Of a stretch of 64,000 nt of DNA, positions 19,481 to 41,227 are shown piece after piece. Source of the stretch: Micromonospora sp. NPDC093277 (GTDB lineage: Bacteria > Actinomycetota > Actinomycetes > Mycobacteriales > Micromonosporaceae); contig NZ_JBIWJO010000006.1 of assembly GCF_044765245.1 (NCBI RefSeq), positions 382,697 to 446,696 of the forward strand, in the 5' to 3' direction. Both the position numbers and the translations under genes were made by a program. Numbering within the stretch: the first letter of the stretch is position 1; each line of letters begins with the position of its first letter. The notes beneath the pieces were generated by a model, which made no database searches, had not been told where the DNA came from, and worked only from the letters and a program-made list of their open reading frames with translations.

Positions 19481-19724
19481 CCAGACGCATCGTCGGAGAA
19501 TGTGTCGACGCAAAGCCCAACGTCCGGTAGAGCGGCTCGCCATCTCGGGAAGCCCGTAAATCCACTCTCGTAACCCCCCCGCTGTTGATACCAGCCGAGG
19601 AGCGCCAGCATGCAAGCCCGCGAATAGCCACGTCTACGGCAGTCACGATCCGTGGCCACATTGAAGACGTACCCCACGTCGCCGCTGGGGTTGTCCGGAC
19701 CACCCAGACGGTGCTGACGGGCTG

Positions 19725-20291
19725 TTGGACGGATTCGAGGTCGGTTACGTCGCCGAGGACGGTACGCAGCACCGGCTGCCGTTGACGGCCGTCTGGACCG
19801 TGCGGTTCGAGGCGACGGCCCCGGTGCGGCGGTTCACCGCGCGGAAGGAACAGCGGCACCTGCCGGGCCGGTGGTGGTCGGCCACCGATGGCGCCCACGT
19901 GGGCTACGAGTCGTGGCTGGAACGCAATCATGTGATGGCGTTGGACTTCGAACCGGCGGTGGTCGGGATCGCCTCGCAGCCGTTCTGGCTGTCCTGGCGC
20001 ACGCCGGAGGGCCCGGTTCGGTCGCACGCGCCGGACTACTTCGCCCGCCGATCGGACGGTTCCGCGATGGTGGTCGACTGCCGGCCAGCGGAGCGGCGCC
20101 CGGCCAGGGACCTGGCCGCATTCGAGGCGACGCGGCGGGCGTGTGAGCTGCTGGATTGGGAGTACCGGCTGGTGGGCGCACCGGATGCGATCGTGACGGC
20201 GAACCTACGCTGGCTGGCCGGGTACCGGCATCCCCGCGAGGACGCGGCGAAGCGTTGGGGACTCCGCGCACTGGCAGAGGCGCCGGTCTAG
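19725..20291 (+). CDS. TnsA-like endonuclease N-terminal domain protein (solitary)
   Basis: Motifs YESWLERNHVMALDFEPAVVGIASQPFWLSW...HAPDYFARRSDGSAMVVDCRP are typical of actinobacterial TnsA-like proteins. No TnsB/TnsC nearby. Confidence 0.55.
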   Translation: MDGFEVGYVAEDGTQHRLPLTAVWTVRFEATAPVRRFTARKEQRHLPGRWWSATDGAHVGYESWLERNHVMALDFEPAVVGIASQPFWLSWRTPEGPVRSHAPDYFARRSDGSAMVVDCRPAERRPARDLAAFEATRRACELLDWEYRLVGAPDAIVTANLRWLAGYRHPREDAAKRWGLRALAEAPV

Positions 20292-20586
20292 CGCTGAGCA
20301 GTCCGACCGTGTCCATCGGGACGTCCCGGTCGAGAGTTCAGATGCCATCGGTACGCAGCCGGGTAACGGGTAGGCCGCGCCCTGCACCTGTCTGATCTTC
20401 GACGCGGGGCCAAGTTCCGCGATCAGCGCACCCAGGTCGGTCTGCGCACCGCTTCACAGCGGACAAGCCTGACGCCGAGACCCGCTTTCCGTGTCTACAA
20501 CCAGAGCCGTGCTGCGCGACCGGGGCTGGCACGGCGGGTTGTATATCCAGTATAGTACCGGACATGATATCGAGTGTGGTGACGTC

Positions 20587-21171
20587 ATGAGTGTCCGGCA
20601 CGCCCTGCTCGCGCTGCTCAACGAGGGCCCCAAATACGGGCTACAGCTCCGCGAGGAGTTCGAGGCGCGGACCGGTGAGGTGTGGCCGCTGAACGTCGGC
20701 CAGGTGTACACGACCCTGCAGCGGCTGGAGCGGGATGGCCTCATCGAGTCGGACGACGACGCGGAACCGGGGCCGCAGAAGGGTTTCCGGATCACCGCCG
20801 CCGGTGCGGACGAGCTGGCCGGCTGGCTGCGCACGCCGCCCGACCTCGCGTCCCCGCCACGCGACGAGCTGGTGATCAAGATCCTTATTGCGGTACGGCT
20901 GCCGGGGGTCGACGTGCACGAGGTCATCCAGGCCCATCGCCGCTACCTCGTGGAGCTCATGCAGCAGTGGACCAGGCTCAAGGACGAGGAGGGCGACCTC
21001 GACCTCAGCCTGGGCCTGGTCGTCGACGCCGAGCTGTACCGGCTGGACTCCGTCGTGCGATGGCTCGACACCGCGGACGGTCGGCTCAAGCGCGCCGCCC
21101 TGGAACCACCGGTACCGGCGAAGACGCCGACCGGGCCGCAGCTTCGACGCAGGGTGGGGATCCGTCGATGA
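20587..21171 (+). CDS. PadR-family transcriptional regulator
   Basis: ATG 20587. ALLALLNEGPKYGLQLREEF...VYTTLQRLERDGLI winged-helix motif. Stop overlaps the downstream ABC gene start. Confidence 0.75.
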   Translation: MSVRHALLALLNEGPKYGLQLREEFEARTGEVWPLNVGQVYTTLQRLERDGLIESDDDAEPGPQKGFRITAAGADELAGWLRTPPDLASPPRDELVIKILIAVRLPGVDVHEVIQAHRRYLVELMQQWTRLKDEEGDLDLSLGLVVDAELYRLDSVVRWLDTADGRLKRAALEPPVPAKTPTGPQLRRRVGIRR

Positions 21172-21893
21172 GCGGGGTGCTGGAGATGCGCGTGGTGTCC
21201 AAGACGTACGTGGACGGCTCCGCCGAGGTGCACGCGCTGCGCGAGGTCGACTTCACCGTCGAGCCGGGCAAGATGGTCGCGGTGATGGGACCCAGCGGCT
21301 CGGGCAAGAGCACGCTGCTCACCATCGCGGGGGCGCTGGAGCTGCCGACCAGCGGTGAGGTGCTCGTCGCCGGCCAGCCGCTGGCGAAGCTGTCCCGTGA
21401 CGAGCGGAGCCGGCTGCGGCGGCGGGCCATCGGGTACGTCTTCCAGGACTTCAACCTGCTGCCCGGGCTCACCGCCGCCGAGAACGTGGCGCTGCCGCTG
21501 GAGCTCGACGGGATGTCGGCCGGCAAGGCGCGCGTGGCCGGCCTGCGTGCCCTGGAGGAGTTGGGTCTCGCCGACCGCGCGTCCCGGTTCCCGGACCAAC
21601 TGTCCGGCGGTGAGCGGCAACGGGTGGCGATCGCCCGGGCGGTGGTGGGAGACCGGCGGCTGCTGCTGGCCGACGAGCCGACCGGCGCGCTCGACTCGGC
21701 CAACGGCGAGGCCGTGATGCGGCTGATCCTGAACGCCTGCAAGCAGGGGGTGAGCGCGGTGGTGGTGACCCACGACGCGCAGTTGGCGTCGTGGGCCGAC
21801 CGGGTCGTGTTCATCCGCGACGGGCGCATCGTCGACCGCACCGCGCCCCGGCTCGGGCCTGATTCCGTGCTGACCGAGGGGGCGAGCCGATGA
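21168..21893 (+). CDS. ABC transporter ATP-binding protein (MacB/LolD-like)
   Basis: Walker A GPSGSGKST. Signature LSGGERQRVAIARA. Walker B LLLADEPTGALD. ATGA overlap with padR. Confidence 0.85.
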   Translation: MSGVLEMRVVSKTYVDGSAEVHALREVDFTVEPGKMVAVMGPSGSGKSTLLTIAGALELPTSGEVLVAGQPLAKLSRDERSRLRRRAIGYVFQDFNLLPGLTAAENVALPLELDGMSAGKARVAGLRALEELGLADRASRFPDQLSGGERQRVAIARAVVGDRRLLLADEPTGALDSANGEAVMRLILNACKQGVSAVVVTHDAQLASWADRVVFIRDGRIVDRTAPRLGPDSVLTEGASR

Positions 21894-24355
21894 GCGTCGC
21901 GGTCGAGGAGCCGCCGTTGGTGCTCGGCACCGGCCGTGGTGGCATGCCGGCTCGGCGGGCCGTGGCGCGCTGGGCCTGGCGGCTGTTCCGGCGGGAGTGG
22001 CGCCAGCAGGTGATCGTGCTGATCCTGCTGGTCCTCGCGGTGGCGGCCACCACGGTGGGGCTGGCCATCGGCGCGGCCGCACCGTCGGATGCTTGGCTGT
22101 TCGGCACCGCCGACAACCGGACGACGCTGGGCAGCGCCGGCCCGCAGATCGACGCCGATCTTGCGACGCTGCGCAGCTCGTTCGGCATCATCGACGTGAT
22201 CGAGCATTCAAAGCGGATCCGGGTGCCAGGCTCCGCGAACGGTCTCGACCTGCGCGCACAGGACCCCAACGGCCCGTACGGCAAGCCGATCCTGCGCCTG
22301 GACAAGGGTCGGTGGCCGCAGGGTCCGGCCGAGGTCGCGATCACCCAGCGCGCCATGAAGACCTTCAACCTGCACCTGGGCGGGACCTGGGACGCGGGTG
22401 GCACCACCCGGACCGTGGTTGGCCTGGTCGAGAACCCGCTCAACCTCAACGATGCGTTCGCCCTCGTCGCGCCGGGTCAGATCGCCGACCCGCAGCAGGT
22501 CGAAGTGCTGCTCAAGGCGTCCCGGTCGGAGTACGTCTCGAAGCCGCGCCCCGACGGCATGACGAACCAGCGCCGCGCCGACGATCAGAACACGGCCGCG
22601 GTGATGGTGCTCGTCCTGGCCACGATCGGGTTGGTGTTCGTCGGCCTGATGGCGGTGGCTGGCTTTACCGTGATGGCCCAGCGGCGGCTGCGGGCGCTCG
22701 GCATGCTCGGTGCGATCGGTGCGAGTCACCGCCACATCCGGCTCGTCATGCTGGCCAACGGTCTGGTCATCGGCGGAGTCGGCGCCCTCACCGGCGCCGT
22801 GACGGGGGTCGCCGGATGGGCCGCCCTGGGTCCCCTGCTGGAGCCGGTGCTGGGCCACCGCATCGACCGGTTCAAGCTGCCCTGGACACCGCTGGGCCTG
22901 GCCGTCCTGCTGGCCGTGATCACCGCGGTCCTCGCCGCCTGGTGGCCGGCTCGGGCAGCCGCGCGCATCCCGGTCGTCGCCGCGCTGTCCGCCCGACCGG
23001 CGCCGCCGCGTCCGGCGCACCGGTTCGCCTTGCTGGGCACGCTGCTACTGGCGGGTGGCCTGACCTCGCTCTACCTGTCCAAGGGCACGAAACCGCCGTA
23101 CATCGTGGGTGGCGTGCTGGCCACCGCGGTCGCCCTGCTGCTCCTGGCCCCGGTCGGCATCGCCGCCATCGGCCTGCTCGCCCGGCACGCGCCACTGGCG
23201 CCCCGGCTGGCGATGCGCGACCTGGCCCGCTACCGGGCGCGGTCCGGCTCGGCGCTTGCCGCGATCGCGTTGGCCGTCGGGATCGCCGCCACGGTCGTGC
23301 TGACCGCCGCTGTCTCGGCGGCGAAGGCGGCGGCCCCGACCGGCGGCAGTCTGCCCGCGGACCAGGTCATCGTCTGGCTTGACCCGGGGCGGACGTTCGG
23401 AACGGTACCGGTCCTCACCGCCCAGCAGGAGGCCGACGCCCGCAAGCAGGTCGACGCGATCGCGGCCCGGCTGGGTGCCACCTCGGTGCTGCCACTGGCC
23501 GGCGCGGTCGACCCGAACGGCCCGATCGACCGGGAGAACAACGGCCGACCACTCGTCAACCTGGGCATTCCTCGCCAGGACGGCGACCACACCGTGGACA
23601 ACGGCGGGGGCTCGATCTCACTGTTCGTGGCCACGCCGGAACTGCTGGCCTACTACGGGATCGACCCGGCGAGCGTCAACGCCGACACCGACCTGCTCAC
23701 CTCGCGGTCGAATCTCGACGGGTACAAGCCGTTCCCCGTCGCCCGGAACACCGCCTGGGCGCCGAAACTGCAGCACGTCACGCTGCCCGACTACGGGTCC
23801 CTGCCCAACGTGCTGATCACCACGCACGCCATGACGGCGTTGCACGTGTCGACGGTACCCGTCGGGTGGCTGGTCAAGGCGCCGAAGGCGATCACCGCGG
23901 CGCAACTCGACACGGCCCAGCAGACCGCGGTGGGCGCCGATCTGAGCATCGAGTCCCGGCCGACCGGTACCGATGCGCAACGAGTCGCGGACGACTTCAC
24001 CGCCGCCGGCATCGCCGTCGCCCTCGGCGTGCTAGCGATGACCGTCGGGCTCATCCGCAGCGAGACGAGCCGGGACCTGCGCACGCTGACCGCGGCCGGG
24101 GCTCCGCGGCGCACCAGGCGGGCGCTCACGGCGTCCACCGCGGGCGCGCTGTCGCTCACCGGCGCGGTCATCGGTACCGGCTGCGCGTACATCGCGCTGC
24201 TGGTCTGGTACCACCGGGAGTTGCACTGGCTGGCCCACCCGCCGCTGGTGAACCTGGCCGCGATCCTGGTCGGGCTGCCGATCGTCGCGTACCTCGGCGG
24301 CTGGCTGCTCGCCGGCAAAGAAATGCCGGCAATCGCCCGCCAGGCGCTCGACTGA
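21890..24355 (+). CDS. ABC transporter permease with two FtsX-like domains (MacB-type)
   Basis: 821-aa polytopic protein. Start overlaps the ATPase stop. Duplicated 4-TM FtsX architecture. Confidence 0.8.
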   Translation: MSVAVEEPPLVLGTGRGGMPARRAVARWAWRLFRREWRQQVIVLILLVLAVAATTVGLAIGAAAPSDAWLFGTADNRTTLGSAGPQIDADLATLRSSFGIIDVIEHSKRIRVPGSANGLDLRAQDPNGPYGKPILRLDKGRWPQGPAEVAITQRAMKTFNLHLGGTWDAGGTTRTVVGLVENPLNLNDAFALVAPGQIADPQQVEVLLKASRSEYVSKPRPDGMTNQRRADDQNTAAVMVLVLATIGLVFVGLMAVAGFTVMAQRRLRALGMLGAIGASHRHIRLVMLANGLVIGGVGALTGAVTGVAGWAALGPLLEPVLGHRIDRFKLPWTPLGLAVLLAVITAVLAAWWPARAAARIPVVAALSARPAPPRPAHRFALLGTLLLAGGLTSLYLSKGTKPPYIVGGVLATAVALLLLAPVGIAAIGLLARHAPLAPRLAMRDLARYRARSGSALAAIALAVGIAATVVLTAAVSAAKAAAPTGGSLPADQVIVWLDPGRTFGTVPVLTAQQEADARKQVDAIAARLGATSVLPLAGAVDPNGPIDRENNGRPLVNLGIPRQDGDHTVDNGGGSISLFVATPELLAYYGIDPASVNADTDLLTSRSNLDGYKPFPVARNTAWAPKLQHVTLPDYGSLPNVLITTHAMTALHVSTVPVGWLVKAPKAITAAQLDTAQQTAVGADLSIESRPTGTDAQRVADDFTAAGIAVALGVLAMTVGLIRSETSRDLRTLTAAGAPRRTRRALTASTAGALSLTGAVIGTGCAYIALLVWYHRELHWLAHPPLVNLAAILVGLPIVAYLGGWLLAGKEMPAIARQALD

Positions 24356-25035: not shown

Positions 25036-25881
25036 ATGAGAGCACTGCGTCGTACCCTGGCCGCGATCGTCGCGACGACGTTCGCGCTGCTGGCGACATC
25101 CGCCCCCGCGGCCGCCATCACCGGCGGCGAACCCGACGGCAACCGCCACCCCAACGTGGGCCTGATCCTGTTCTACGACGAGACCGGCCGCTACCGTTGC
25201 TCGGCCACGCTCGTCTCGCCGACCATCGTCCTCACCGCCGCGCACTGCACCCAGGGGACCCTCGGCAAGACCCTGGTCACCTTCGACTCGGTCATCGCCG
25301 AGGCGCCGCCGAGCCCGTTCCCGGTGGCGACGAACCCCGGCGCCGGCTACACGGCGCAGGAACTCGCCGCGGCGGGTTACCTGTCCGGCACGGCGTACAC
25401 CCACCCGCAGTACTCGGACTTCACCGACCTGAAGAACTGGAACGACGTCGGCGTGGTCGTGCTGGACAAGCCGGTGACGGGCATCGCGCCCGCGACCGTG
25501 GCGCCCAGCGGCTACCTCGACCAATTCGCGCAGCCGAAGCTCAACAAGACCATCTTCGAGGTGGTCGGGTACGGCACCGAGGTCCGCAAGCCGGATTCGG
25601 GCCCGCAGAAGCCGGAGCCCATGAGCTACCCGCTGCTGCGCCGCTACACCACCTCCCCGGGGCAGAAGCTCACCCCGCAGATCCTGCAGATGAACGGCAA
25701 CCCGAACGACGTCCACGGCGGCGGTGGCACCTGCTTCGGTGACTCGGGCGGCCCGTCCTTCCTCAACGGCTACCTGGTCACGGTCACCAGCTACGGCTAC
25801 ACGGACAACTGCCGCTACCTCGGCGGCTACCAGCGGGTCGACATCCCGGTGGTCCAGAACTGGCTCGCCACCGTCCGGTAA
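25036..25881 (+). CDS. secreted trypsin-like (S1 family) serine protease
   Basis: Signal peptide. TAAHC (His). GDSGGP (Ser). Confidence 0.8.
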   Translation: MRALRRTLAAIVATTFALLATSAPAAAITGGEPDGNRHPNVGLILFYDETGRYRCSATLVSPTIVLTAAHCTQGTLGKTLVTFDSVIAEAPPSPFPVATNPGAGYTAQELAAAGYLSGTAYTHPQYSDFTDLKNWNDVGVVVLDKPVTGIAPATVAPSGYLDQFAQPKLNKTIFEVVGYGTEVRKPDSGPQKPEPMSYPLLRRYTTSPGQKLTPQILQMNGNPNDVHGGGGTCFGDSGGPSFLNGYLVTVTSYGYTDNCRYLGGYQRVDIPVVQNWLATVR

Positions 25882-25927: not shown

Positions 25928-28900
25928 TCAGTCCCGGCCGGCCGCGCGGCCGATCGCCGCCTCCACCCCGCCGATCCGATCGGCGAGCAGACCCAGCGCG
26001 CCCACCGCGCGATCCAGCGGGTCGTCCGAGGTGCCACCGAGCGCCCGGGCCCGTTGGAAACCCGACTTCACCTCGGCCCAGCGACGGGCCTGCTCCGGCG
26101 TCAGCCGGCCCCGCAGCTCGGCGAGCTTGAGCAGGTTGGCCTCCGCACCGGCGGCCAGGGTCTGCGCCTCGCCCAGGTAGTGGTCGTCGACGACCGCCTC
26201 CAGTTCCTCGTCGGTGAGCACCGGGACGATCCGCTCGGCCAGCTTGTTCATGTTCCGGTACGAGCCCTGGAGCTGGAACGGCGGCTCGGTGCGGGAGTCG
26301 TCCGACTGGCCCGCCGAGGCGATGTACGCCTGGTTGTTGGCGAGCACCACCTGCTGCACCCGCAGCAGCTTGCGCAGCACCGCGACGATCTGCTCCAGTT
26401 CCACCGGCGCGTACGGGTGGGCGAGCTGATCCGCCCGGACCGTGTCGTCGCCCCGTGCCATCCGGACCAGCAGCTCGACGTCGCCGCGCTCCCGCCCGGC
26501 CAGCGGCGCCAGCACCGGATTCGAGGTGAGCGCGTTCTCGAGGTAGCTGAGCGCGAACACCTCCTCCCGCCCGGAGAGCACGTCGCCAAGGTTCCACACG
26601 TCGGCCCGGTTGGCCAGCATGTCGGGCACCCGGAACCGCCGCCCCGACTCGGTGTAGGGGTTGCCGGCCATGCACACCGCGAACCGCTTCCCGCGCAGGT
26701 CGTACGTGCGGGTCCGGCCCGCCCAGACTCCCTCCATCCGGCGCTGCCCGTCGCAGAGCGGGATGAACTTCTGCAGCAGCTCCGGGGAGGTGTGCTGGAT
26801 GTCGTCGAGGTAGAGCAGGACGTTGTTGCCCAGCTCCAGCGCGAAGGAGATCTTCTCCACCTCCTGGCGGGCGGTCGCGTCGGGAGCCTGCGCCGGGTCG
26901 AGTGAGGTGACCGCCGCGCCCAGGGCGGGCCCGTCGACCTTGACGAAGACCAGGCCGAGCCGGCTGGCCACGTACTCCATCAGGGTGGTCTTGCCGTAGC
27001 CGGGCGGGGAGATCAGCAGCAGCAGGCCGGACTGGTCCACCCGCTTGGCGTCGCCCGTCGCGCCGAGCTGCCGGGCCAGGCTGTCGCCGATCAGTGGCAG
27101 GTAGACCTCGTCGAGCAGGCGGTTGCGGACGAAGCTGCTCATCACCGTCGGCCGGTACTCCGCCAACCGCAGCCGCTCCCGCTCGGCGGCCACCAGCGCG
27201 TTGCGCCGGCGCTGGTAGTCCCGGTACGCCGGCACCCGCTCGGTGCGGAACCGGCGGGTGCGGGCCAGCGTCTCGTCCACCCGAAGCGTGATCGCCGACT
27301 GGTCGATCCGCGGGTGCGCGCCGAGCAGCCCGCCGACCGTCTCCGACACGACTGCAGTCGCCTCGTGCCGCGGCAGTTCCGCGCCGCACAGCTCGACGGC
27401 GACCGCCTCCGGCAGGTCGTACCCGGAGAGCGAGCCGTCGTCGGTGGCGAGGAACGCGGTCAGCCACGCCTCGACGAGCTGGTGCCGGCTCGCCAGGTCG
27501 CCGTCGAGCGCCCGCAGGTCGTCGTCGAACTCCCGCGCCGAGGGCGACCCGGGGCCGCCGAGGGCGCGCCGGAACCGGTCGAGCAGGGCAGCCGCGCCGG
27601 CCCCGGTGCCGAAGGCGACGGGCCGCCGTGACAGCTCCTCGAAGAGGTACTCCCCCGCCAGGTCGGCCTCCCCGGCCGGCCCGGTCAGCCCGGCGTCGCG
27701 CAGGAACCGGCCGATCTCGGCGGCCAGTTCGGCGCGCAGCCGGTCGATCGCGTCATCGGCCCGCTGCGGTCCCGCCCCGGCGACCTCGCCGGCCTCGGTG
27801 TCGACGTCGGGCGGCGACGGCGGGTGGGCCGGGCGGCCGAACCGTTGCCTCGACCGGGCCAGCGAGGCGGCCCGGGCCGTCCACGAGCGTCGGGCCGGCT
27901 CGGTGGCGCCGAACCGCCAGAAGAGCTGCGCCGTGGCGCGGGCAGCCGGTGGGTAACGCAGGAGCCCCGCTCCGGCGTGCAGGCGCAGCAGCGCCAGCAG
28001 GATCTCGGCCGCGTCGTGATCGTGTACGCCGCCCTCGTAGCCCTCGTCGTAGCGGGCCTCGGCGTGCCGGCGGACCAACTTCCGCAGCTCGTCCACTTCG
28101 GCCGCCGCCGCGTGCAGCCCGTCCAGGGTGAGCCCGTCGCGGCCCGCCTCGGCGTCGGCCAGGATCGAGGTGGCCAGGTATTCCCCGCGGTAGACCTGCG
28201 GTGACTCCGAGACCAGCAGCTGGTCCCAGAACCGGTGGGTGCGCTGGAACTCCTCGTCCCGGATCGGGGCACGGTAGTCGGTGCCCGTCACCGCCACCGC
28301 CAACCGCCCGTCCTGCGGGACCACGGTCACGTCGATCGGCTGGGTGTTGACCGCGAACCGGTGCCGGCCCAACCGGATCGTCTCGCCGCCGTCGGCGTAC
28401 AGGTCGAGTCGGTCGCGCAGCCCGCGGGCGGCCTCCTGCCGGGTGGCGCGGATCCGCCCGTCCAGCTCCTCGGCCCGGACCTGTTCGCCGAGCGTACGCA
28501 GCTCGTCGACGACCGCACGCAGCTTGCCCACCATCGGGTCGGCGGCGAAGTACGTGTTGATCTCGTCGAGCGATCCCAGGGTGGCGGTCCGGCTCCGCAC
28601 GCTGACCAGGATGCGGTCCGCCGACGAGGCCAACCGGTCGGCGCGGCGGGCCCGCTCGTCGAGCAGCGCCTGCTTGCGTGACGAGAACGCCTCGTAGATC
28701 TCGGCCCGGCGGGTGGTCAGCTCGGCGAGGAAGTCGTCGAACTCGCCGAACCGGGATTCCAGGTCCTCCACCCGCAGCAGCAGCCGGCCCAACTGCTCGT
28801 CGCAGCGCTCGGCGGTGTCCGCCGCCGCCAGCGACCCGGTCACCGCCTGGCCGAGCAGCGCGAACTCGGCGGCGAAGCCCGCCCTGCCCTCGGCCTGCAG

Positions 28901-30997
28901 CAGCTCGCGGCGGCGGTTGTCCAGCACGGCCCGGGCCCGGTTCACCCCGCCGAGCACCTCACCGACGCGGGCCAGGATGCCGGTACGCACGGTCGCGTCG
29001 GCGATGTCCAGCCCGCCCACCACCTCGGTGATGGTCTGCAGGCCCTCGGCGCGTCCGGTGAGCGCGTCCCGGACCGTCTCGGACTCGGCCACCGTGCCGA
29101 TCGCGGCGGCCTGCCCGGCGAGCCGGTCCACCTCGTGCTGGTAGCCGGCGAACGCGTCGTCCCGGCGCAGGAACTCCACCGCCCGGCGCCCGGCGGCGGC
29201 CAGTTCCTCGTCGAGCCGCGCGGCCAGCTCGTCGACCCGCTCATGGTCGACGTACCGCATCTCCCGCAGGGTCTCCAGGCGACCACGCGCCTGCCGCAAC
29301 CCGCCCAACTGCGTCACCCAGTCGTCCGCGGTCAGCGGTGCCTCGCCGCGGGCACGACGGGCCAGCGAGGCGATCCGGGCGGCGCTGTCGTCCAGCGCGT
29401 CGCGCGCCTGTTCGGTCAGCGCCCGGACCTTCTCGTACTCGTCGAGGACCGTGGCCGCGGTGCGGCGCAGCTCGGCCAGCGGGGCCAGCAGGTCGCCGAG
29501 GTCGGCGTCGTCGAGCCAGTGGTAGTGGTCCACCGCCCGGGCGCAGGCGGCGATCAGCGCCTCGTACACCCCGGCCGACGGGGCGGTGCCGTCGACCATC
29601 CGGGCCACCGAGAGGCAGTCGGAGATGCCCCGGACGAGATCGGCGTTGCCGACCCGTTCCAGCGGCCCGGTCCCGGCCGGCTGCGCGGCGGCGTACGCGT
29701 CGGAGACGTACGGGGTCTGCCAGACCTGCATCGGGTGGACCCGGGTCGGCTCCTCGGAGGTGCCCCGGAACACCACCAGCGTGCCGTCGTCGAACAGCGA
29801 GAAGCCGTGGCACGGGATCGGTGCGGCCACCTCCTTGCGGATGGCGTTGTACGGCAACAGCAGGGAGCGTCCCTCGGCCCGGGCGTGGAAGACGTAGAGG
29901 ACGTCCTCCCCGTTGGGCGAGCGGATGACCCGCTCGAACTCCAGTCCGGAGACGGCGGTGTCGAAGGTACGGGTGACCCCGGTGGCCAGGTGGTAGCCGC
30001 CGGCGAAGATGATCCCGTGGTCCTCGGGCAGCCGCTGGCAGGCCGGCCCGATCCCGTCGAGCCGGACCACCGTGCGGGTCAGCGTGTTGAAGACCAGGTG
30101 TCGCCACTCGGTTTCCTTGTACGGCCGCATCCGGAGCAGGATCAGCGGGCCGACCCGCGCCCAGTCGATGTCGGCGTCGGCGAGGCTCTGCAACGGCTCG
30201 TCCACCGGCTCGCTGTAGATGCCCTCGCCGGTCTCGGTGTTGTTCTCCACCTTGACCGTCAGGGTGCCGCCGATCGTCTCGACGAAGATCTCGTTCTGGA
30301 TGGAGATGTGCGGGTACCGGCCCGGGACGTGGTCGTCCCGGGTGGTCTCGACCCACTCGAAGTCGTGCGTCGGCGGGAAGACGTGCTCCCGCTCGCCCCG
30401 GTTGTCGAGGTACTCGACGCCGCCGTCCGTGTCGACCCGCCAGCGCAGCACCCGGATGTCGTCGGTCTGCGGGCCGGTCTGGAAGACCGCCAGCAGCCGC
30501 CCGTCGAGGCGGCGCAGCTGCAACAGGCGGGTCTGCCGGTAGTAGCGGTACAACTCGCCGAAGTCGCGCAGGAACCCTGGATCGCGCAGCAGCCCGGGCC
30601 GCTCGTCCGGGCCGGCGGCGTCGAACCGGAACACAGCTCCGTCGGTGCCGGATTCCCTCGTGAAGCGGTGCAGCGAGAAGACGTCGTCGACCGTCGTCTC
30701 CGGCTTGAGACCGATGAAAACGTTGTAGCCGAGGAGCATCAGCCCGCCGACCGAGACGACGTCCCGCGACACACAGTTGTGCTCGGTCCGGATCCGCTCG
30801 GTGCTGAGCAGGCGCAGCTCGGCACTGCCGAAGACCTCCAGCCGCCGGGCGTTCAACGCCTCCGCCCGCCGGATCAGCTCGGCGGCCTGCCCGCTCAGCC
30901 GGTTCCGCAGCACCTCGTAGCTGCCGGCGTCCAGCCCCACCCCCGCCACCCCGGCCCCGGCGCGGGCGGCGCCGGGGCCGGTCACCGGCTCACTCAC
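25928..30997 (-). CDS. giant (1689 aa) flotillin-associated P-loop ATPase, function unknown
   Basis: GTG start at 30997 overlaps the flotillin stop by 8 nt. N-terminal about 450 aa beta-rich with no recognised motif. Long helical middle. C-terminal AAA-like module with Walker A LLISPPGYGKTTL (aa about 1327-1339) and Walker B LLYLDDIQH. Confidence 0.75.
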   Translation of the reverse strand: MSEPVTGPGAARAGAGVAGVGLDAGSYEVLRNRLSGQAAELIRRAEALNARRLEVFGSAELRLLSTERIRTEHNCVSRDVVSVGGLMLLGYNVFIGLKPETTVDDVFSLHRFTRESGTDGAVFRFDAAGPDERPGLLRDPGFLRDFGELYRYYRQTRLLQLRRLDGRLLAVFQTGPQTDDIRVLRWRVDTDGGVEYLDNRGEREHVFPPTHDFEWVETTRDDHVPGRYPHISIQNEIFVETIGGTLTVKVENNTETGEGIYSEPVDEPLQSLADADIDWARVGPLILLRMRPYKETEWRHLVFNTLTRTVVRLDGIGPACQRLPEDHGIIFAGGYHLATGVTRTFDTAVSGLEFERVIRSPNGEDVLYVFHARAEGRSLLLPYNAIRKEVAAPIPCHGFSLFDDGTLVVFRGTSEEPTRVHPMQVWQTPYVSDAYAAAQPAGTGPLERVGNADLVRGISDCLSVARMVDGTAPSAGVYEALIAACARAVDHYHWLDDADLGDLLAPLAELRRTAATVLDEYEKVRALTEQARDALDDSAARIASLARRARGEAPLTADDWVTQLGGLRQARGRLETLREMRYVDHERVDELAARLDEELAAAGRRAVEFLRRDDAFAGYQHEVDRLAGQAAAIGTVAESETVRDALTGRAEGLQTITEVVGGLDIADATVRTGILARVGEVLGGVNRARAVLDNRRRELLQAEGRAGFAAEFALLGQAVTGSLAAADTAERCDEQLGRLLLRVEDLESRFGEFDDFLAELTTRRAEIYEAFSSRKQALLDERARRADRLASSADRILVSVRSRTATLGSLDEINTYFAADPMVGKLRAVVDELRTLGEQVRAEELDGRIRATRQEAARGLRDRLDLYADGGETIRLGRHRFAVNTQPIDVTVVPQDGRLAVAVTGTDYRAPIRDEEFQRTHRFWDQLLVSESPQVYRGEYLATSILADAEAGRDGLTLDGLHAAAAEVDELRKLVRRHAEARYDEGYEGGVHDHDAAEILLALLRLHAGAGLLRYPPAARATAQLFWRFGATEPARRSWTARAASLARSRQRFGRPAHPPSPPDVDTEAGEVAGAGPQRADDAIDRLRAELAAEIGRFLRDAGLTGPAGEADLAGEYLFEELSRRPVAFGTGAGAAALLDRFRRALGGPGSPSAREFDDDLRALDGDLASRHQLVEAWLTAFLATDDGSLSGYDLPEAVAVELCGAELPRHEATAVVSETVGGLLGAHPRIDQSAITLRVDETLARTRRFRTERVPAYRDYQRRRNALVAAERERLRLAEYRPTVMSSFVRNRLLDEVYLPLIGDSLARQLGATGDAKRVDQSGLLLLISPPGYGKTTLMEYVASRLGLVFVKVDGPALGAAVTSLDPAQAPDATARQEVEKISFALELGNNVLLYLDDIQHTSPELLQKFIPLCDGQRRMEGVWAGRTRTYDLRGKRFAVCMAGNPYTESGRRFRVPDMLANRADVWNLGDVLSGREEVFALSYLENALTSNPVLAPLAGRERGDVELLVRMARGDDTVRADQLAHPYAPVELEQIVAVLRKLLRVQQVVLANNQAYIASAGQSDDSRTEPPFQLQGSYRNMNKLAERIVPVLTDEELEAVVDDHYLGEAQTLAAGAEANLLKLAELRGRLTPEQARRWAEVKSGFQRARALGGTSDDPLDRAVGALGLLADRIGGVEAAIGRAAGRD

Positions 30998-33011
30998 CGG
31001 CGCGCTGCCGCGGGCCGGCCAGGGCGGCCACCGGCGTGTCCGCCACGCCGAGGCGCTGCGCGGCCTTCAAGAGCTCCTGCAGCTTGCCCTGGTCGGTGCC
31101 GCCGGCACGCATCTGTTGCAGGAGGAACGCCGAGAGGGTGAGGTTCTGCACGTCGCCGGTGTTCAGCGAGCTGAGCATCCGGGTCAGGTCGTCGGTGAAG
31201 CTGGCGCTGCCGTCCCGCCACGGCCGCGTGAGGTCCTGTGCCACGTCGGAATGATTGACGAAGCCGTCCACGCTCTTGCCGAACGAGATCGAGTTGAGCA
31301 GCCGGTCGAAGAAGACGCTGTCCCCACCGACGATGTCGATGTTCGCCTGCTCCAGGCCGGTCGAGACCAGCTTCGCCTGTGCCTCGGCGACCTGCCGCTG
31401 GGCGTCCAGCCCGGCGAGGCGTACCTCCTTCTCCAGTTCGAGCCGGAGCCGGTACTCCTCGTGCCCGCGCGTGGCGTCGTCCAGCGCGGCCATCGCGGCG
31501 GCCTTGTCGGTGAGCCCCTCGGCCTCGCCCTTCAGCTTCTCGCGTACCGCGTCGGCGGCGGTCAGCGCCTTCTCGCGCTCGACGGCGGCCTCCGCGCGGC
31601 CGACCTTCTCGATCGCCTCGGCGCTGCGTTCGCGGACCTGCACCTCGGCCAGCCCGGCGGCAGCGGCCTCGGCCTGGTGTCCTTCGGCCAGGCGGATCTT
31701 CGCGCGGGCATCCAGCTCGGCGGCCTGCTGCCGCGCCTCGGCGAGCACCAGCTCCTCGCGGGCCTTGAACTTGGCGGCCGCCTCACCGGCCTCCGCCGCC
31801 TTGATGTCCTTGACCAGGTTCTCCTGGGCCTCGGCCTCGGCCTGGATCACCACCGCCTGGCGGGTGCGCTCGGCCTCCTCGACCACCCGCAGGCGCTTGA
31901 TGTTCTCCTCCTGCTCGGCGACGGTCTTCTCCACCGCGATCCGCTCGCGGATCACCTCGGCCATCGTCCGCTTCTCCGCCTCGACCTCTTTGTCCTTGGA
32001 GATCGTGCTCAGCTCCGTCTCCCGCTGCCGGCTGATCACCTCCAGCATGCGGTCCTTCTCGATCCGCTCGGTCTCGATCGCGATGACCCGCTCCCGGTTC
32101 TTCTCCGCGACCGCGACCTCCCGGGCCCGGTTCTCCTGCTGGACGCCCAACTGCTCGTCGGTACGGATGTTCGCCGTCTCGGCCCGCAGCCGCTCCTCCG
32201 CCCGGACCCGGGTGACCTCCGCCTCCTCGCGGGCCCGCACCGTCTCGATCTCCCGGCGCTGCTTCGCCTCGGCGTCCGCCTGGCGCCGCTCCAGCTCCAG
32301 GATCGCCTCCCGCGCCTCGACGTTCTGGCGGGTTATCTCCTTCTCCTCGCCGCGCCGGAACTCGTTGGTCCGGACGTGCTCGATCGCGGTCAGCTCAGTG
32401 ATCTTGCGAATGCCCTGGGCGTCGAGGATGTTCGCCGCGTCCAACTGGGACATCGGCGTCTGCTCCAGGAAATCGATCGCCGCGTCCTCCAGGCTGTAGC
32501 CGTTGAGGTCGGTGCCGATCACCCGGATGATCTGGTCCCGGAACTCGTCGCGCTTGGTGTACAGGTCGACGAAGTCGAGTTGCTTGCCCACCGTCTTCAG
32601 CGCCTCGGAGAACTTGGCGTTGAACAACTCCTGCAGCGTCTCCCGGTCGCTGGCCCGGGCGGTCCCGATCGCCTGGGCCACCTTGACCACGTCCTCGATG
32701 GTCTTGTTGACCCGCACGAAGAAGGTGATCCGGATGTCGGCCCGGATGTTGTCGCGGCAGATCAGACCCTCGTGGCCGGTCCGTTCGATCTCGATCGTCT
32801 TGACCGAGATATCCATGATCTCGGCCTTGTGCAGGACGGGAAGCACGACCGCGCCGGTGAACGTGACGTCGACCCGGCGGACCTTCGACACGATCAGCGC
32901 CTTGCCCTGATCGACCTTCCGGAACAACCGGCTGATCAGGAAGACCACGCCCAGGGCGACGAGGAGGAGGACGGCGAGCAGCACGCCGATCCCGGTGGCG
33001 ATGACATCCAT
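30990..33011 (-). CDS. flotillin family protein (SPFH/band 7, YqiK/FloT-like)
   Basis: N-terminal TM. SPFH domain (LIVSKVRRVDV...). Long EA-rich coiled coil. 673 aa. Confidence 0.8.
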   Translation of the reverse strand: MDVIATGIGVLLAVLLLVALGVVFLISRLFRKVDQGKALIVSKVRRVDVTFTGAVVLPVLHKAEIMDISVKTIEIERTGHEGLICRDNIRADIRITFFVRVNKTIEDVVKVAQAIGTARASDRETLQELFNAKFSEALKTVGKQLDFVDLYTKRDEFRDQIIRVIGTDLNGYSLEDAAIDFLEQTPMSQLDAANILDAQGIRKITELTAIEHVRTNEFRRGEEKEITRQNVEAREAILELERRQADAEAKQRREIETVRAREEAEVTRVRAEERLRAETANIRTDEQLGVQQENRAREVAVAEKNRERVIAIETERIEKDRMLEVISRQRETELSTISKDKEVEAEKRTMAEVIRERIAVEKTVAEQEENIKRLRVVEEAERTRQAVVIQAEAEAQENLVKDIKAAEAGEAAAKFKAREELVLAEARQQAAELDARAKIRLAEGHQAEAAAAGLAEVQVRERSAEAIEKVGRAEAAVEREKALTAADAVREKLKGEAEGLTDKAAAMAALDDATRGHEEYRLRLELEKEVRLAGLDAQRQVAEAQAKLVSTGLEQANIDIVGGDSVFFDRLLNSISFGKSVDGFVNHSDVAQDLTRPWRDGSASFTDDLTRMLSSLNTGDVQNLTLSAFLLQQMRAGGTDQGKLQELLKAAQRLGVADTPVAALAGPRQRAGE

Positions 33012-33172
33012 GGTTGAGCGCGCGGGGTTGATCCGCCCGGTACGAGCGGACCGATACCGCGCATCCTCCTTTCAACAGGGCGGGGCAGGGTGGGACGAGC
33101 TGGGTGGCCGAGGGGTGTCCGTCCGGTCCGGACCGGAGTGATCCGGATCGGACGGACGGTCACCGGCGGCGG

Positions 33173-33856
33173 TTACCTCGGTGCGTGCCGGGAATGGTCG
33201 GGGTCGAGGGCGAAGTCGCCGGGCGTCACCCAGAAGAACTCGCCCTCGACGTCGTAGTCGTAGATGAGCGCCGGACTGCCGGCGTGCAGCGGCTCGGCAC
33301 CGGTCTGGCGCACCTGCACGGTCGCGGCGGATCCGTCGGCCGCGGCCACCTCCGCCTGGCCGAAGTCGGCGGTCACCCGGCCGGTACGAATGGTGCAGAG
33401 GCTGCCGACGAAGGCGTGCCGGCTGGACTCCGTACCGGCCTGGAAGAGGCGACCCAGGGGCACCGCGGCCAGGCGGGTCACCAGCCAGGCTGCGAGCGCG
33501 GCCACCAGCAACACCCCGACCGACACCGCGATCCGGGCCGCCGCGCCGAAGCCGAGCCCGTCGAGCAGCGCGCTGCCCGCCAGGCTGACGAACCAGGCCA
33601 CCGCGACGAGCAGCGAGAACCCGATGGCGCTGGGCAGGCCGCCGAGCCCGAGACCGGCGAGGATGCCACCGGGCACCCCGTCGACGTCGAGGTCGTCCCC
33701 GAGATCCAGCACGCCGGTCAACACCAGGAGCCAGTAACCGACCACGACCAGCAGCAGGAAGCTGAAGAGCACGGTGGGGAAGCTGAGCGCCGCACCGAGA
33801 AAGCTGACCACCGCGCCCCCTCCGTATCCGGCGGATCGCACGCCCGCCGGCATCAT
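33173..33856 (-). CDS. YqiJ/NfeD-like membrane protein (DUF1449-type) with C-terminal OB-fold
   Basis: Tandem ATG at 33856/33853. Several TM helices. C-terminal region (TIRTGRVTADFGQAEVAAADGSAATVQVRQ) resembles the NfeD beta-barrel. Sits upstream of the flotillin gene as in yqiJK. Confidence 0.6.
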   Translation of the reverse strand: MMPAGVRSAGYGGGAVVSFLGAALSFPTVLFSFLLLVVVGYWLLVLTGVLDLGDDLDVDGVPGGILAGLGLGGLPSAIGFSLLVAVAWFVSLAGSALLDGLGFGAAARIAVSVGVLLVAALAAWLVTRLAAVPLGRLFQAGTESSRHAFVGSLCTIRTGRVTADFGQAEVAAADGSAATVQVRQTGAEPLHAGSPALIYDYDVEGEFFWVTPGDFALDPDHSRHAPR

Positions 33857-33893: not shown

Positions 33894-35303
33894 TTACGAC
33901 GGCGCTGTCTCCTGGCCACGGGCCGCCGAGGCACCGCCGGCCAGCTCCAGGACGAGGTCGGCGGCCCGGCCTGCCCCACCCGCCTGCCGGAGCCGTTCGC
34001 CCCAGTGGCGGCTGCGCCGGGCGAAGGTGTCGTCGGAGAGCAGGCGGCGCAGCTTGGCGGTGATCTCGTCCGCTGCGAAATGCGGCGGCCGGTCGACGGC
34101 GAGCCCGACGCCGGCGTCCACGCCCCGTGCGGCAAGGTCGTAACAGTCCAACCACAACGGCATCGCGAACAGCGGCTTGCCGAAGTAGATGCCCTCGTGG
34201 AAGCCGTTCGCGCCGCCGTGGGTGACGAAGACCCGCACGTGCGGGTGTGCCAGCACCTCGGACTGGGACGGCAGCCAATCCTCCAGCCGGATGTGCGCGG
34301 GTAGCGGGCCGGGCAGCAGCGCCCGCTGCGCCGCCGGCAGCTTCCACAGCACGTGGTGTCGCGGGCCGAGATCCGCCAGCGCGGTGGCGAGCGCGGCCAC
34401 CTGGTCGCGGGAGAGGACCGCGAGGGTGCCCAGGCCGACGTAGACCACCGAGGGGTGCTCGTCGAGCCACCTCGACAGGTCGCTGCCGGTGGTCGCGGCC
34501 GGCGCCTCGCGCTCGACCGCCGTCCCCAGCATGTGCAGATGCTTCGGCGCGGGGAACGGGTACTCGATGCCGAAGACCGAGTATCCGAAGACGGCCGCCG
34601 CCGCGGCGCTGTACCGCTCCAGGTCACCGAACGGGTTGGCGATGCCCAGCGACCGGCGGTACCACGCCGAGCCGAGCAGGTTGGTGCGGGTGAGCAGGGC
34701 GAGGTGGAGCCGGATCCGGAACGCCACGTTCGCCGCCAGCCGCGCCGGGCCCATCCGCCGCGGCAGGCCGGAGGTGGGCGTGGGGTAGCTCCACGGCAGG
34801 CGGCGCAGGTACAGCATGCTGACCGGGAACGGGACGCTGAGCACGAACGGCACCCGCCGGGTCATCGCCGCGTCGAGGGCTGGCAGGTGCAGCGCGTCGA
34901 TCACCATCAGCCCCGGATCGAGCTTGTCGATCAGGTCAAGCAGCCACGGGTACTGCTCGCCGGTGACGGACGGGTGTTGGAGCAGCCGGGTCGCCGCGAC
35001 GAAGCCGTCCGTGGTCCGCGGCCCCCTCGTCATCGCCGCGTAGACGGACTCGTCCGGGGTGTAGTAGGTGGGACCGGAAGAGACGAAGCCGACCGGGCTC
35101 GGCCCGGGAATCCGTTCCACCCGCCCCCTGGCCGCCTCCTCGGACGCGAACCACAGATCCGGTACGCCCCGATGGGACAGCTCCCCGGCGATGGCCAGCA
35201 GCGGGCTCATTTGGCCCGGCTGGGCAGGACTGGCGAAAAGGATGGATTTTTCGGATCCCAACGTGTTCTCCCCGTGACGTCTGGCTTTCACGATCGCAGA
35301 CAT
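33894..35303 (-). CDS. GT1 family glycosyltransferase (MGT/UDP-glycosyltransferase-like)
   Basis: C-terminal donor-binding region (HVRVFVTHGGANGFHEGIYFGKPLFAMPLWLDCYDLA). Confidence 0.7.
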   Translation of the reverse strand: MSAIVKARRHGENTLGSEKSILFASPAQPGQMSPLLAIAGELSHRGVPDLWFASEEAARGRVERIPGPSPVGFVSSGPTYYTPDESVYAAMTRGPRTTDGFVAATRLLQHPSVTGEQYPWLLDLIDKLDPGLMVIDALHLPALDAAMTRRVPFVLSVPFPVSMLYLRRLPWSYPTPTSGLPRRMGPARLAANVAFRIRLHLALLTRTNLLGSAWYRRSLGIANPFGDLERYSAAAAAVFGYSVFGIEYPFPAPKHLHMLGTAVEREAPAATTGSDLSRWLDEHPSVVYVGLGTLAVLSRDQVAALATALADLGPRHHVLWKLPAAQRALLPGPLPAHIRLEDWLPSQSEVLAHPHVRVFVTHGGANGFHEGIYFGKPLFAMPLWLDCYDLAARGVDAGVGLAVDRPPHFAADEITAKLRRLLSDDTFARRSRHWGERLRQAGGAGRAADLVLELAGGASAARGQETAPS

Positions 35304-35447: not shown

Positions 35448-38400
35448 TCACGCGACCCCGAGGCCCCGCTCGATGGCCGCGATGATCTGCGGGCGCAGTT
35501 CCTCGGGCCGGATGATGGCGTCCACGGAGCCGACCTCGACCGCGCGCTGGATGCTGTGCACACCGTCGAACTCGGCGGCCACCTCACCCAGCTTCTCCGC
35601 CCGGACGGTGGACCGGACGTCCATGAGCTGCGTGACCAGTGCCGCCCGCTCCCCACCGGTCGCCGCGGCGACGCGCGACTCCAGTTCGGCCACCCGCGGA
35701 TCCTTCGCCGTACGCGCGTTGACGTCGCCGGCGAACACGACGGCCGCCGCGGGCGCCCCGCCGATGACGGACGCGAACGAACCGTCCACGGCGAGCACCG
35801 TCATGCTCGGGTTGAGCGCCTTGGAGAACACCACGAATGCGCCGCCGTGGTACCGCGAGATGACGCAGAACACGATCGGTCCCTCGAAGTTCACGATCGC
35901 CCGGCCGATCTCCGCGCCGTACTCCAGCTGCAACTGCCGCATCGACTCCGGCGAGCCGTCGAACCCGGACAGGTTCGCCAGCACGACCAACGGCCGGTTG
36001 CCGCTGGCCGCGTTGATCGCCCGCGCGGTCTTCTTCGACGAGCGCGGGAACAGGGTGCCCGCGGTGTAGGTGTCCGGGCCGTCGGTGGGCGGGAAGCCGC
36101 GTCGCGGCACCGACCGGGACTCGATGCCCAGCAGGCACACCGGGATGCCGCCGAGGTGGACGTCCTGCACGACCGCGGTCTCGGCGTCGGCCATGCCCGC
36201 CCAACGCTCCAGGATCGCGTGGTCCTGGTCGGCCAGGGCCCGCATCAACGTACGGATGTCGAAGGCCTTCTTGCGATCGGGGTTGTGCTCCCGCGAGAAG
36301 ATCTGACCGACGGTGATGAAGTCGCTGTCCGGCACCGAGTGCGGGTAGCCGGAGATGTCACGGTCGACCGGGTCGGACGTGACCGCCCGGCGCGGCCGGG
36401 TCTCGCCGGGCGCGATGTAGGTGTGGTCGTAGTGCGCCATCAGCACGTTACGGGCCGCCCGCAGGTCCGGCGCCCAGTACTGGGCCTGGCCGTTGGGGCC
36501 CATCACCCGGTCGTAGCCGCCGATGCCGAAGTTGTCCTCGGCCGACACCCCACCGGAGAAGTCCAGCGACTGCTTACCGGTCAGCACCATCGCCGAGTCC
36601 GGGGTCATCACCAGGATGCCCTTGGTGTGCATGAGCATCGTGGCCTCGGCGTTCCAGTACGGCTGGGCGCCCACGGTGATCCCGGCGACCACGATGTTGA
36701 TCTCGCCGCCCTGCTGGGTGAACTCCACGATCCGCTTGAGCGCGGCGGCCACCCAGTCCATGTTCTCGGTGCCCGAGCTCATGGAGATCCGCGCGCCCGC
36801 CGACAGGGCGAACCAGTCCAGCGGCACGCGCATCCGCTCGGCCAGGTCGAGCGCGGCGATCACCCGCGCGCACTCCGGCTCGGCCAGCGCGCCCAGCGCC
36901 CTGGTCGGGTCGCCGAGCAGCACCACCCGCGTGACGCCCTCGGGGTACCGCTCCGTCGGCGTGGTCACCACGCCGGCGACGATGCCCGCCTTGTTCTGCC
37001 CCTTCGGCCGTTCGACCGGGGCCAGCTCACCGGAGTCGTCCAGGTCGTACTCGGTGAAGGTGCCACGCTGGCCGGCCAGCATGTCGGTCAGCTCGTACGG
37101 GTACGTCGTGCCGCGCCGCCGCGCCGCGAGCACCTTCTGCCGGTAGTCGTCGAGCGGCTGGATCGGCTCGTCGGTCGGCCCGGTGACCGACAGCTGCATG
37201 CCGGCGTCGTAGGAGACCCGCACCGCGATGTCGGTCAGCTCACCGGTGGCCTCGTCGCGCTGGCGGGCGAGGAAGAGGACCTCCTCCAGGCCGGCGCCGG
37301 CCGTCATCGGCAGCATGCGCTGGGCGACGGTGTTCAGCTCGTCGATGCTCAGGTCGTTCGGCGGCCAGACGTAGATGGTGATCCGGTTGGTGTCGAACCG
37401 CTTCCTCGCCGGCCGCTGCGCCTGAACCTTGCGAATCGCGTCGAGGCACGCGTCCAGCGCGCCCTCGAGGGCGGGCAGCGCGAGGATCCGGCCGTCGGCG
37501 TCGCGCAGCGGCGTCAGGTCGCGGACCTGGGCCATCGCGGTCAGCCGCTCGTCGGCCGGATTGTTCGGGGCGACGCAGTGGAAGAGGTAGACCTCCTCGT
37601 CCACCGACGGCAGCCGGGTCAGGTCGAAGTTGCGCAGCCTCGGCAGTTGCAGTCGCTCGGCAATCAGCGGGTGCAGCCCGCGGATGATCCGGTCCTCGCC
37701 GATGCCGGGCCGGAACGTGAACTGGTGGTGCATCGCCGTTCCGGTCGGCCCGGCCACCGACATCGTCACCCGCTGGAGCACGTCCAGCAGACCCGCACGG
37801 TCGACGATCTCCCGCAGGGCGGCGGCCATCGCGTCCGTGTCGGGCTGACCGGCCCAGGTCAGGTACACGTCGGCGACCGGCTGCTCCGAGTCCCGACGCG
37901 CCGAGCCGTCGGTGGAGTCCGGCTTCACCAGTCCGGCGACCAACTCCAGGGCCGCGGGCAGCTCGCCGAAGTCCGTGGCCGCCGCGATCAGCCGGAACCG
38001 CTCACCGTCGCGGTCGTACTCCGCGGTGAAGAACGAGTGGCCCCCCACCTCGATGGTTCGCGCGTCGCTCGCACCGCGATTGCCGTAGTAGCGGCGGCTG
38101 AGCACCTCCAGCATCGGGCCGTGGTCGGCGTCCGGCTTGCCGATACGCTGACCGAGCAGCCGGACCAGCGGCTCGGGCGAGGCGACCATGTTCGCGATCC
38201 GCTCGGCGCGGTCGGGCGCAGCGGGGTTCTTGTCGAGGTGGCGAAGGTGGCCGCGGACGCCCGCGTACACCTCGGCCCGCTTGCGGCGAAGCATCGGCTG
38301 GGCGACCCACCGGAAGACGATGCTGCGGGCCAGGTCGCCGACGACCGGGAACCGGAGCTGGGTGGCGAAGATCAGGTGCTCCAGCGCCTGCCCGACCAGG

Positions 38401-40934: not shown

Positions 40935-41227
40935 CGAGTAACCCTCCCAAAGGTTCGATCCAACACAACGAGGACTCCCTCGGGCGGCGGTCCCCGTCAC
41001 AACCTTCGCCGCTACCGGCCGGTATGTAACGGTCGAACCCACCAGCCAGGGAGGGCGAAGTTTTGTGGACACCCGCCAACTCGCCTTGTAGGCCATGCGC
41101 CGTCGAATCTACGGCAGTAACTGTCGGTGCCGAGACGGATACTACGGGCCATGCGGGCGCGCCGGTCGACAGCCGCCGGCCACCCCTGGCCAGCCAGCGA
41201 GTCCGTCCGTCCTCGGGAGGTACACCC

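Follow-up and report, generated by a model that had tools for sequence, protein, structure and literature searches.

The stretch of DNA analysed here (the window) comprises 64,000 nucleotides of Micromonospora sp. NPDC093277, with a G+C content of approximately 72%. On its minus strand lie three co-directional genes that encode, in order, a YqiJ/NfeD-like protein, a flotillin-like SPFH protein and a 1689-aa protein ending in an AAA+ module, which we refer to as the giant protein (Table 1). An earlier note, made from the sequence alone, had described these three same-strand open reading frames (ORFs) as a flotillin operon with an unusually large coupled ATPase, and a check of the sequence and its ORFs found all three where they had been placed. 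The giant ORF is identical to an NCBI protein from the same organism (100% identity, 100% coverage, 1689 aa). The questions considered below are what the giant protein is, how strictly it is tied to flotillin, and what the two might do together.

Table 1. Features of the flotillin-giant locus, in positions of the window.
Feature	Position	Strand	Basis
YqiJ/YuaF (NfeD2)-like multi-pass membrane protein	33173..33856 or 33173..33811	-	ORF, homologues, profile
Spacer between YqiJ-like and flotillin-like genes, 161 nt	33012..33172	-	sequence
Flotillin-like SPFH protein, 673 aa	30990..33011	-	translation, homologues, tblastn
Overlap of flotillin stop and giant start, GTGAGTGA	30990..30997	-	sequence
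Giant cytoplasmic AAA+ protein, 1689 aa, DUF3686/DUF7902/AAA	25928..30997	-	Pfam, homologues, AlphaFold
Divergent beta-propeller-like domain (modelled), aa 62-427, after long helix aa 26-56	29717..30814	-	model, Foldseek
Helical rod of three-helix-bundle-like repeats, aa 433-1280, including DUF7902 (aa 614-698)	27158..29701	-	
AAA+ module, aa ~1293-1515	26453..27121	-	Walker A/B, sensor-1, Arg-finger candidate
Stem-loop across giant stop codon	25883..25931	-	folding energy versus shuffles

Pfam assigns DUF3686 to aa 40-493 of the giant protein (E 8e-219), DUF7902 to aa 614-698 (E 6e-30) and both AAA and AAA_5 to aa 1326-1449, where the Walker A and B motifs confirm the C-terminal AAA-type P-loop reported in the earlier note. 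The same scan revealed no transmembrane segment and no nuclease, protease, DNA-binding, effector or VWA domain. NCBIfam and PADLOC returned only marginal P-loop similarity to RuvB and IetA, and searches of the PDB by sequence and by profile yielded no solved structure matching beyond the Walker A region. The protein falls, as had been supposed, into no characterised family, its assignments being limited to DUF3686, DUF7902 and a generic AAA+ module. Two AlphaFold models span it (aa 1-720 and aa 700-1689; mean predicted local distance difference test score 88 each) and arrange it as a helix, a domain of approximately 26 strands, a helical rod, the AAA+ module and a helical C-terminal extension. 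Foldseek searches with the beta domain recovered essentially only beta-propellers (E 7e-6 to 1e-3, TM-scores 0.1-0.3), among them WD40 proteins, paraoxonase, prolyl oligopeptidase and the clathrin terminal domain; with TM-scores this low, we describe the modelled aa 62-427 as a divergent propeller-like domain. The rod is predicted to bear two small beta insertions at aa ~873-911 and ~1210-1239 and a disordered loop at aa ~1062-1078.

Within the AAA+ module, the Walker A motif SPPGYGKTT is encoded at 26984-27010 and the Walker B motif LLYLDDIQH at 26792-26818; a sensor-1 Asn is present in MAGNPYTESG, and PDMLANRAD contains a candidate Arg finger. In the model, a beta-hairpin (aa ~1420-1433) stands between the Walker B and sensor-1 strands, and the fold is nearest, by a modest margin, to the MoxR-type proteins CbbQ/NorQ, dynein and midasin. 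The stretch MAGNPYTESG...PDMLANRAD resembles what we take to be the MoxR/AAA_5 signature. Given the fold match, the hairpin and this signature-like stretch, the module is predicted to be MoxR/dynein-like in fold. Alignments extending down to approximately 27% identity show that Walker A, Walker B, the sensor-1 Asn, R1464 and the motif QGSYRNM are invariant, which indicates a functional nucleotide site and speaks for an enzyme that is active and kept under strong selection. MoxR proteins such as CbbQ, NorQ and RavA are stand-alone ATPases of approximately 300 aa that work with a VWA/MIDAS partner. This is in contrast to the giant protein, in which a single AAA+ module ends a propeller-plus-rod extension of approximately 1300 aa and the constant partner is flotillin.

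More than 6000 homologues of the giant protein were found; an N-terminal query retrieved 901 representative clusters at 50% identity, and among the best 150 clusters listed many of the proteins are 1600-1900 aa long. Identity to the window protein is 82-91% within Micromonospora, approximately 70% in other actinomycete families and orders, approximately 60% in Streptomyces and 33-54% in other phyla. Matches by tblastn, which establish presence only, extend to records from Proteus, Vibrio, Photobacterium, Halomonas and Hymenobacter, and copies are carried by megaplasmids (pQBR103, Deinococcus and Streptomyces linear plasmids).

The gene-neighbourhood survey that the earlier note had called for was run, and it found homologues of the giant protein to be nearly always linked to flotillin; general absence of such linkage, the outcome named there as telling against the system, was not observed. 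The genome set comprised 80 species-representative loci, mostly from Actinomycetota, together with a Myxococcus genome and metagenome-assembled genomes labelled Deltaproteobacteria, Clostridia and proteobacterium. All 77 loci of this set that could be tested have a flotillin-like gene immediately upstream in the same orientation; the other three are at a contig edge. Metagenome loci were taken from the clades farthest from the seed (31-43% identity to it), and among the 71 that could be tested the upstream flotillin-like gene is within 600 nt in 65, at 700-880 nt in 4 and absent in 2. The same gene order, with the flotillin-like gene upstream, is present on all three testable contigs from Flammeovirga, Pirellulaceae and Acidobacteriota and on both testable plasmids (pQBR103 and the Deinococcus plasmid). 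Members of at least seven bacterial phyla carry the trio, an arrangement far beyond chance in this survey. Besides the flotillin and YqiJ-like genes, no neighbour family occurs in more than 25 of 163 loci. A hidden Markov model (HMM) missed the YqiJ-like gene in roughly a dozen loci of Streptomyces; a diverged copy is present in at least one of them. The gene is undetectable or truncated in L039, L047, L051, L059, L064 and other Streptomyces loci. The core of the system consists of the flotillin-like and giant genes, usually joined by the YqiJ-like gene, and this pair is more strictly conserved than the trio.

Database homologues are widely labelled 'DNA repair ATPase', the vague annotation that had been suspected. 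Taken literally, this name would make the giant protein a true DNA repair ATPase with an incidental flotillin neighbour, a reading to which weak similarity to RuvB_N/RuvB (E 1e-3 to 5e-3, Walker A region only) might be added. We consider it highly improbable: the similarity is confined to the P-loop, the protein lacks an SMC/SbcC-type split head as well as DNA-binding and nuclease domains, its neighbours include no repair genes, and its linkage to membrane proteins is near-universal. Assignment to the SMC/SbcC/Rad50 type was rejected on the further grounds that Walker A and B are contiguous within the C-terminal AAA+ module and that the N-terminus is beta-rich, and a dynamin-like reading was rejected as well. 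Nor did the giant protein match a well-characterised system of established function, such as SMC, dynamin or MoxR, the other outcome that the earlier note had named as refuting. Its database name probably arose, we infer, from a coiled-coil resemblance to SbcC-type proteins.

The megaplasmid copies raise a second alternative, that of an anti-phage or conflict system in which the giant NTPase would sense invasion at the membrane; giant NTPases are common in such systems. This too appears very unlikely. PADLOC produced only marginal IetA P-loop matches to the giant protein (E 0.003-0.004; the match at E 0.003 is Walker A similarity) and none to the flotillin- or YqiJ-like proteins, and a defence-system reading was rejected. 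The giant protein has no effector domain, and its very high conservation, with similarity broadly tracking taxonomy, is unlike that of fast-evolving, patchily distributed defence genes.

The flotillin-like protein begins with a hydrophobic anchor (aa 1-27) and an SPFH region (aa ~24-206; nt 32394-32942), followed by a long predicted coiled coil rich in Glu, Ala and Arg and by a C-terminal domain that is conserved. The window protein has no direct match in Pfam, NCBIfam or PADLOC, nor in the PDB by sequence or profile. Because neither it nor the YqiJ-like protein is matched directly by these libraries, family identity was taken from homologues and from tblastn. Homologues of the flotillin-like protein carry the NCBI/JGI names flotillin family, SPFH domain or YqiK, and Pfam Band_7 is matched by five of 15 homologues of approximately 80% identity (best E 1.5e-10). 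By tblastn, aa 24-206 match annotated flotillins on plasmids of E. coli, Agrobacterium and Paracoccus (E 5e-17 to 5e-20), and the protein shares 43% identity with the SPFH protein of pQBR103 (E 9e-140). With its SPFH domain, N-terminal anchor, coiled coil and upstream NfeD2-type partner, it has the predicted features of the flotillin/SPFH2 type (YqiK, FloT). The stomatin-like StlP of Streptomyces was considered as the same protein and rejected; it is SCO2834, which belongs to the cslA cluster and has another architecture.

The upstream protein was assigned less directly. Scans of Pfam, NCBIfam and PADLOC gave no direct match to the window sequence. Pfam YqiJ_N matches three of the 19 homologues found in the corresponding position (E approximately 5e-6) and also the protein in locus L081, and a family profile aligns weakly with the YuaF soluble domain 2k14 (E 0.34; aa 138-197), at the expected C-terminal position. 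An HMM seeded from the window protein detected the same-position ORF in 123 of the ORFs fetched, and identity to the pQBR103 counterpart is 29% (E 2e-20). Together these data point to a protein of the YqiJ/YuaF (NfeD2) type. Its start may be ATG 33856 or GTG 33811, and the latter, which has GGAGGGGG ahead of it, is perhaps the likelier. The spacer that follows contains a perfect Shine-Dalgarno-like motif, GAAAGGAGGATGCGCGG (33057-33073, minus strand), approximately 45 nt upstream of the flotillin ATG and retained in the aligned Micromonospora and Plantactinospora loci. No usable start codon directly follows GAAAGGAGGATGCGCGG, and the flotillin ATG has no Shine-Dalgarno sequence of its own; the motif could be a standby site or an element of the 5' untranslated region.

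The flotillin/giant junction reads GGTGAGTGA; the flotillin frame there is ...GCC GGT GAG TGA and the giant frame GTG AGT GAG CCG GTG. An 8-nt overlap joins the flotillin stop (30990-30992) to the annotated GTG of the giant protein at 30997, as the earlier note had observed when it proposed translational coupling. Further in-frame GTG candidates lie at 30985, 4 nt past the flotillin stop, and at 30949. The first ~23 residues are unconserved and modelled with low confidence, so that the sequence is compatible with more than one exact start; GTG 30997 and GTG 30985 would both allow coupling. Two other Micromonospora loci (L002 and L003) share the identical GTGAGTGA junction, and stop/start overlaps in 14 surveyed actinomycete loci measure 4 nt (GTGA) in 12 and 8 nt in 2. 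Such overlaps of 4 or 8 nt are common in Micromonosporaceae, Pseudonocardiales and Streptosporangiales, whereas gaps of approximately 40-260 nt separate the two genes in Streptomyces and other phyla. The overlap itself stands, then, and translational coupling is a lineage-specific trait of some actinomycetes, not a defining one of the system.

At the 3' end, the stem-loop across the giant stop codon has a predicted folding energy of -39.7 kcal/mol (z -5.3), and 0 of 200 shuffled sequences were equally stable. It is a probable terminator common to the giant gene and to the convergent downstream ORF (25036..25881), which appears by eye to encode a trypsin-type protease-like protein; the hairpin and the convergent ORF together mark the 3' end of the operon. 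A scan of this high-GC locus for promoters and terminators was uninformative, and across its full length the window gave no Rfam or tRNA match. On the other side, a minus-strand gene for an MGT/UDPGT-family (macrolide-type) glycosyltransferase (33894..35303) ends 38 nt before ATG 33856. None of the 80 related genome loci has this gene, and the protease-like ORF is conserved in no related locus. Both were ruled out as parts of the system, and since neither neighbour is conserved, the conserved unit consists of the three genes.

Inspection by eye suggested several further features of the window. Upstream of the glycosyltransferase gene, a 1882-aa ORF (35448-41096, minus strand) appears to be a fused acyl-CoA carboxylase that unites the biotin carboxylase, biotinyl carrier and carboxyltransferase parts in a single polypeptide. 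G+C falls to 0.675 across 18608-20291, a region that holds an IS5-type transposase-like ORF (18608-19273, plus strand) and a TnsA-like endonuclease ORF (19725-20291, plus strand) and may be a mobile-element remnant. A PadR-like regulator, an ATP-binding cassette ATPase and an 821-aa FtsX/MacB-type permease follow on the plus strand (20491-24355) and resemble a distinct transporter module related to the envelope, a few kilobases from the flotillin operon.

The first two genes of the trio recall the two-gene operons yqiJ-yqiK of E. coli, yuaF-floT (yuaG) of B. subtilis and SO1376-SO1377 of Shewanella, in which an NfeD2/YqiJ-like gene likewise precedes a flotillin-type SPFH gene with anchor and coiled coil. 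Those operons stop after the flotillin gene and contain no giant ATPase. This agrees with the claim that the giant lies outside the described yqiJK-type operons; SO1377 of Shewanella was examined as a possible member with a giant partner and excluded, its two-gene operon ending in a terminator. The window flotillin is also longer (673 aa), and only its SPFH region (aa 24-206) aligns with the E. coli plasmid flotillins, at 28% identity.

The association of flotillin with the giant protein is, in contrast to what the earlier note had supposed, not new. Ravi et al. (mSystems 2024, PMC11237479; preprint 2020) described in silico an operon of YqiJ/YuaF, Band-7/flotillin and beta-propeller/coiled-coil/AAA+ proteins. 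In their account, CesT/Tir-PspA operons include three further genes, one of them for a YqiJ/YuaF-type protein with three transmembrane segments, and abbreviated operons without PspA are more widely distributed (PMC11237479). The locus in the window shares with this operon the order of its three genes, the architecture of the giant protein and a similarly wide spread across bacteria; unlike the full-length form it has no CesT/Tir-PspA dyad. No PspA or DUF2170 homologue is present in the 64-kb window, which accordingly holds the abbreviated form. We conclude that the locus is a member of the operon family of Ravi et al., on the basis of architecture, gene order and the 15 metagenome loci in which a PspA gene, mostly with DUF2170, precedes the gene for a DUF3686 protein; the Dokdonia donghaensis IS97_2772 neighbourhood in their Table S3, with identical gene order, is likened by description (PMC11237479). 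These authors tie the operon to membrane dynamics, without experimental data or a specific mechanism (PMC11237479). As far as our literature searches reach, the giant protein is experimentally uncharacterised, as had been believed; no paper turned up for DUF3686, PF12458, DUF7902 or the pairing of flotillin with 'DNA repair ATPase'.

In those 15 metagenome loci, the PspA/IM30 gene (Pfam E 3e-32) lies just upstream of the trio, and most of them also carry the DUF2170 (CesT/Tir-like) gene (E 3e-23). On pQBR103, a megaplasmid of Pseudomonas fluorescens SBW25, the trio ends a nine-gene run (locus L164, NC_009444.1 85112-97641) that encodes PspA, a rhomboid protease, DUF2491, DUF350, DUF1190, a glutathionylspermidine-synthase family protein, YqiJ-like, SPFH and giant proteins in this order. 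The run merges the two PspA operon classes of Ravi et al. Such loci lend some weight to the idea that the flotillin/YqiJ scaffold does no more than recruit or confine the giant protein at the membrane, as HflK/C encloses FtsH, and that the real substrates are PspA/ESCRT-III-like polymers, handled in the manner of Vps4, or damaged membrane proteins. MoxR-type AAA+ proteins, whose fold the giant protein matches, act on heterologous clients, and Ravi et al. (PMC11237479) propose that the operon functions with PspA homologues encoded elsewhere. We nonetheless think this idea unlikely: most loci, including the window and all 80 of the actinomycete-dominated genome loci, have no adjacent pspA, and the sole invariant partner is flotillin.

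These observations allow us to propose how the module might work. We lean, with some reservation, towards a model in which the giant protein binds to the scaffold of flotillin and YqiJ and spends ATP on building, remodelling or taking apart that scaffold or its clients as part of envelope maintenance. In this model the three genes would encode one membrane-associated module. The YqiJ/NfeD-like and flotillin-like proteins would form an oligomeric scaffold on the cytoplasmic membrane face, and the soluble giant protein would dock on it, probably through its beta-propeller-like head or its helical rod. The MoxR/dynein-type AAA+ domains would form a ring, presumably a hexamer, that assembles, reshapes or dismantles the scaffold or the clients held in it; the contact between the proteins, the substrate and the direction of action, whether assembly or disassembly, are what we infer. 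The module would belong functionally to a PspA-type envelope maintenance and stress network, with Micromonospora carrying an abbreviated form that has no adjacent pspA. We propose an ATP-driven role at the scaffold for the giant protein because of its linkage to flotillin, its intact motifs, the absence of DNA-related, protease and effector domains, the occasional joining of PspA, and the precedents of SPFH-AAA+ pairs and MoxR ATPases. Gene order, near-universal linkage, domain architecture and conservation of the ATPase motifs are the observed part of this argument.

SPFH cages partner with AAA+ machines in other settings, as in HflK/C with FtsH and prohibitin with the m-AAA protease. The likeness lies in an SPFH scaffold coupled, genetically or physically, to an AAA+ enzyme at the membrane; FtsH differs in being a membrane-anchored protease of the classic AAA clade, whereas the giant protein is soluble, carries no protease domain and is probably of another AAA+ type. 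A functional analogy can also be drawn with Vps4/ESCRT-III (and PspA-associated AAA+ ATPases), where an ATPase recycles a membrane-bound polymer, with the proviso that PspA is linked to a minority of the giant loci. Extending this analogy, the giant protein could be a dedicated disassembly or remodelling machine for flotillin cages, much as Vps4 is for ESCRT-III, with the propeller head gripping the dome and the rod transmitting the force of the ring. We offer this narrower version as a tentative possibility.

Several points weigh against an ATP-driven scaffold machine of the kind proposed. Known MoxR ATPases use a VWA/MIDAS partner, and none was found among the conserved neighbours or within the giant protein. 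Its Walker B motif has D-D in place of the usual D-E, which may point to slow hydrolysis, or to a role as a switch instead of a motor. In two metagenome loci (L118 and L140) the giant gene has no flotillin-like gene in the available 4-8 kb of upstream flank. Finally, the literature searched contained no experimental study of any member of the family.

SPFH/flotillin scaffolds organise membranes in all domains of life, and recent structures reportedly show them to be very stable closed cages. We know of no account of how cells open, resize or recycle such cages. The locus described here offers a candidate answer, in the form of a large, conserved AAA+ machine genetically tied to one long flotillin subfamily. 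What makes it of interest is this tie between a conserved, megadalton-scale ATPase and flotillin. The label 'DNA repair ATPase', attached to thousands of database entries, is probably misleading. The giant protein is carried by tractable hosts, namely Streptomyces, Myxococcus, Proteus, Vibrio and, on plasmid pQBR103, Pseudomonas fluorescens, which makes the system an accessible route to the question of whether energy drives scaffold dynamics and to the link between flotillin and PspA-type membrane repair. A role in cage disassembly, if true, would make the giant protein, to our knowledge, the first energy-dependent regulator of flotillin microdomains.

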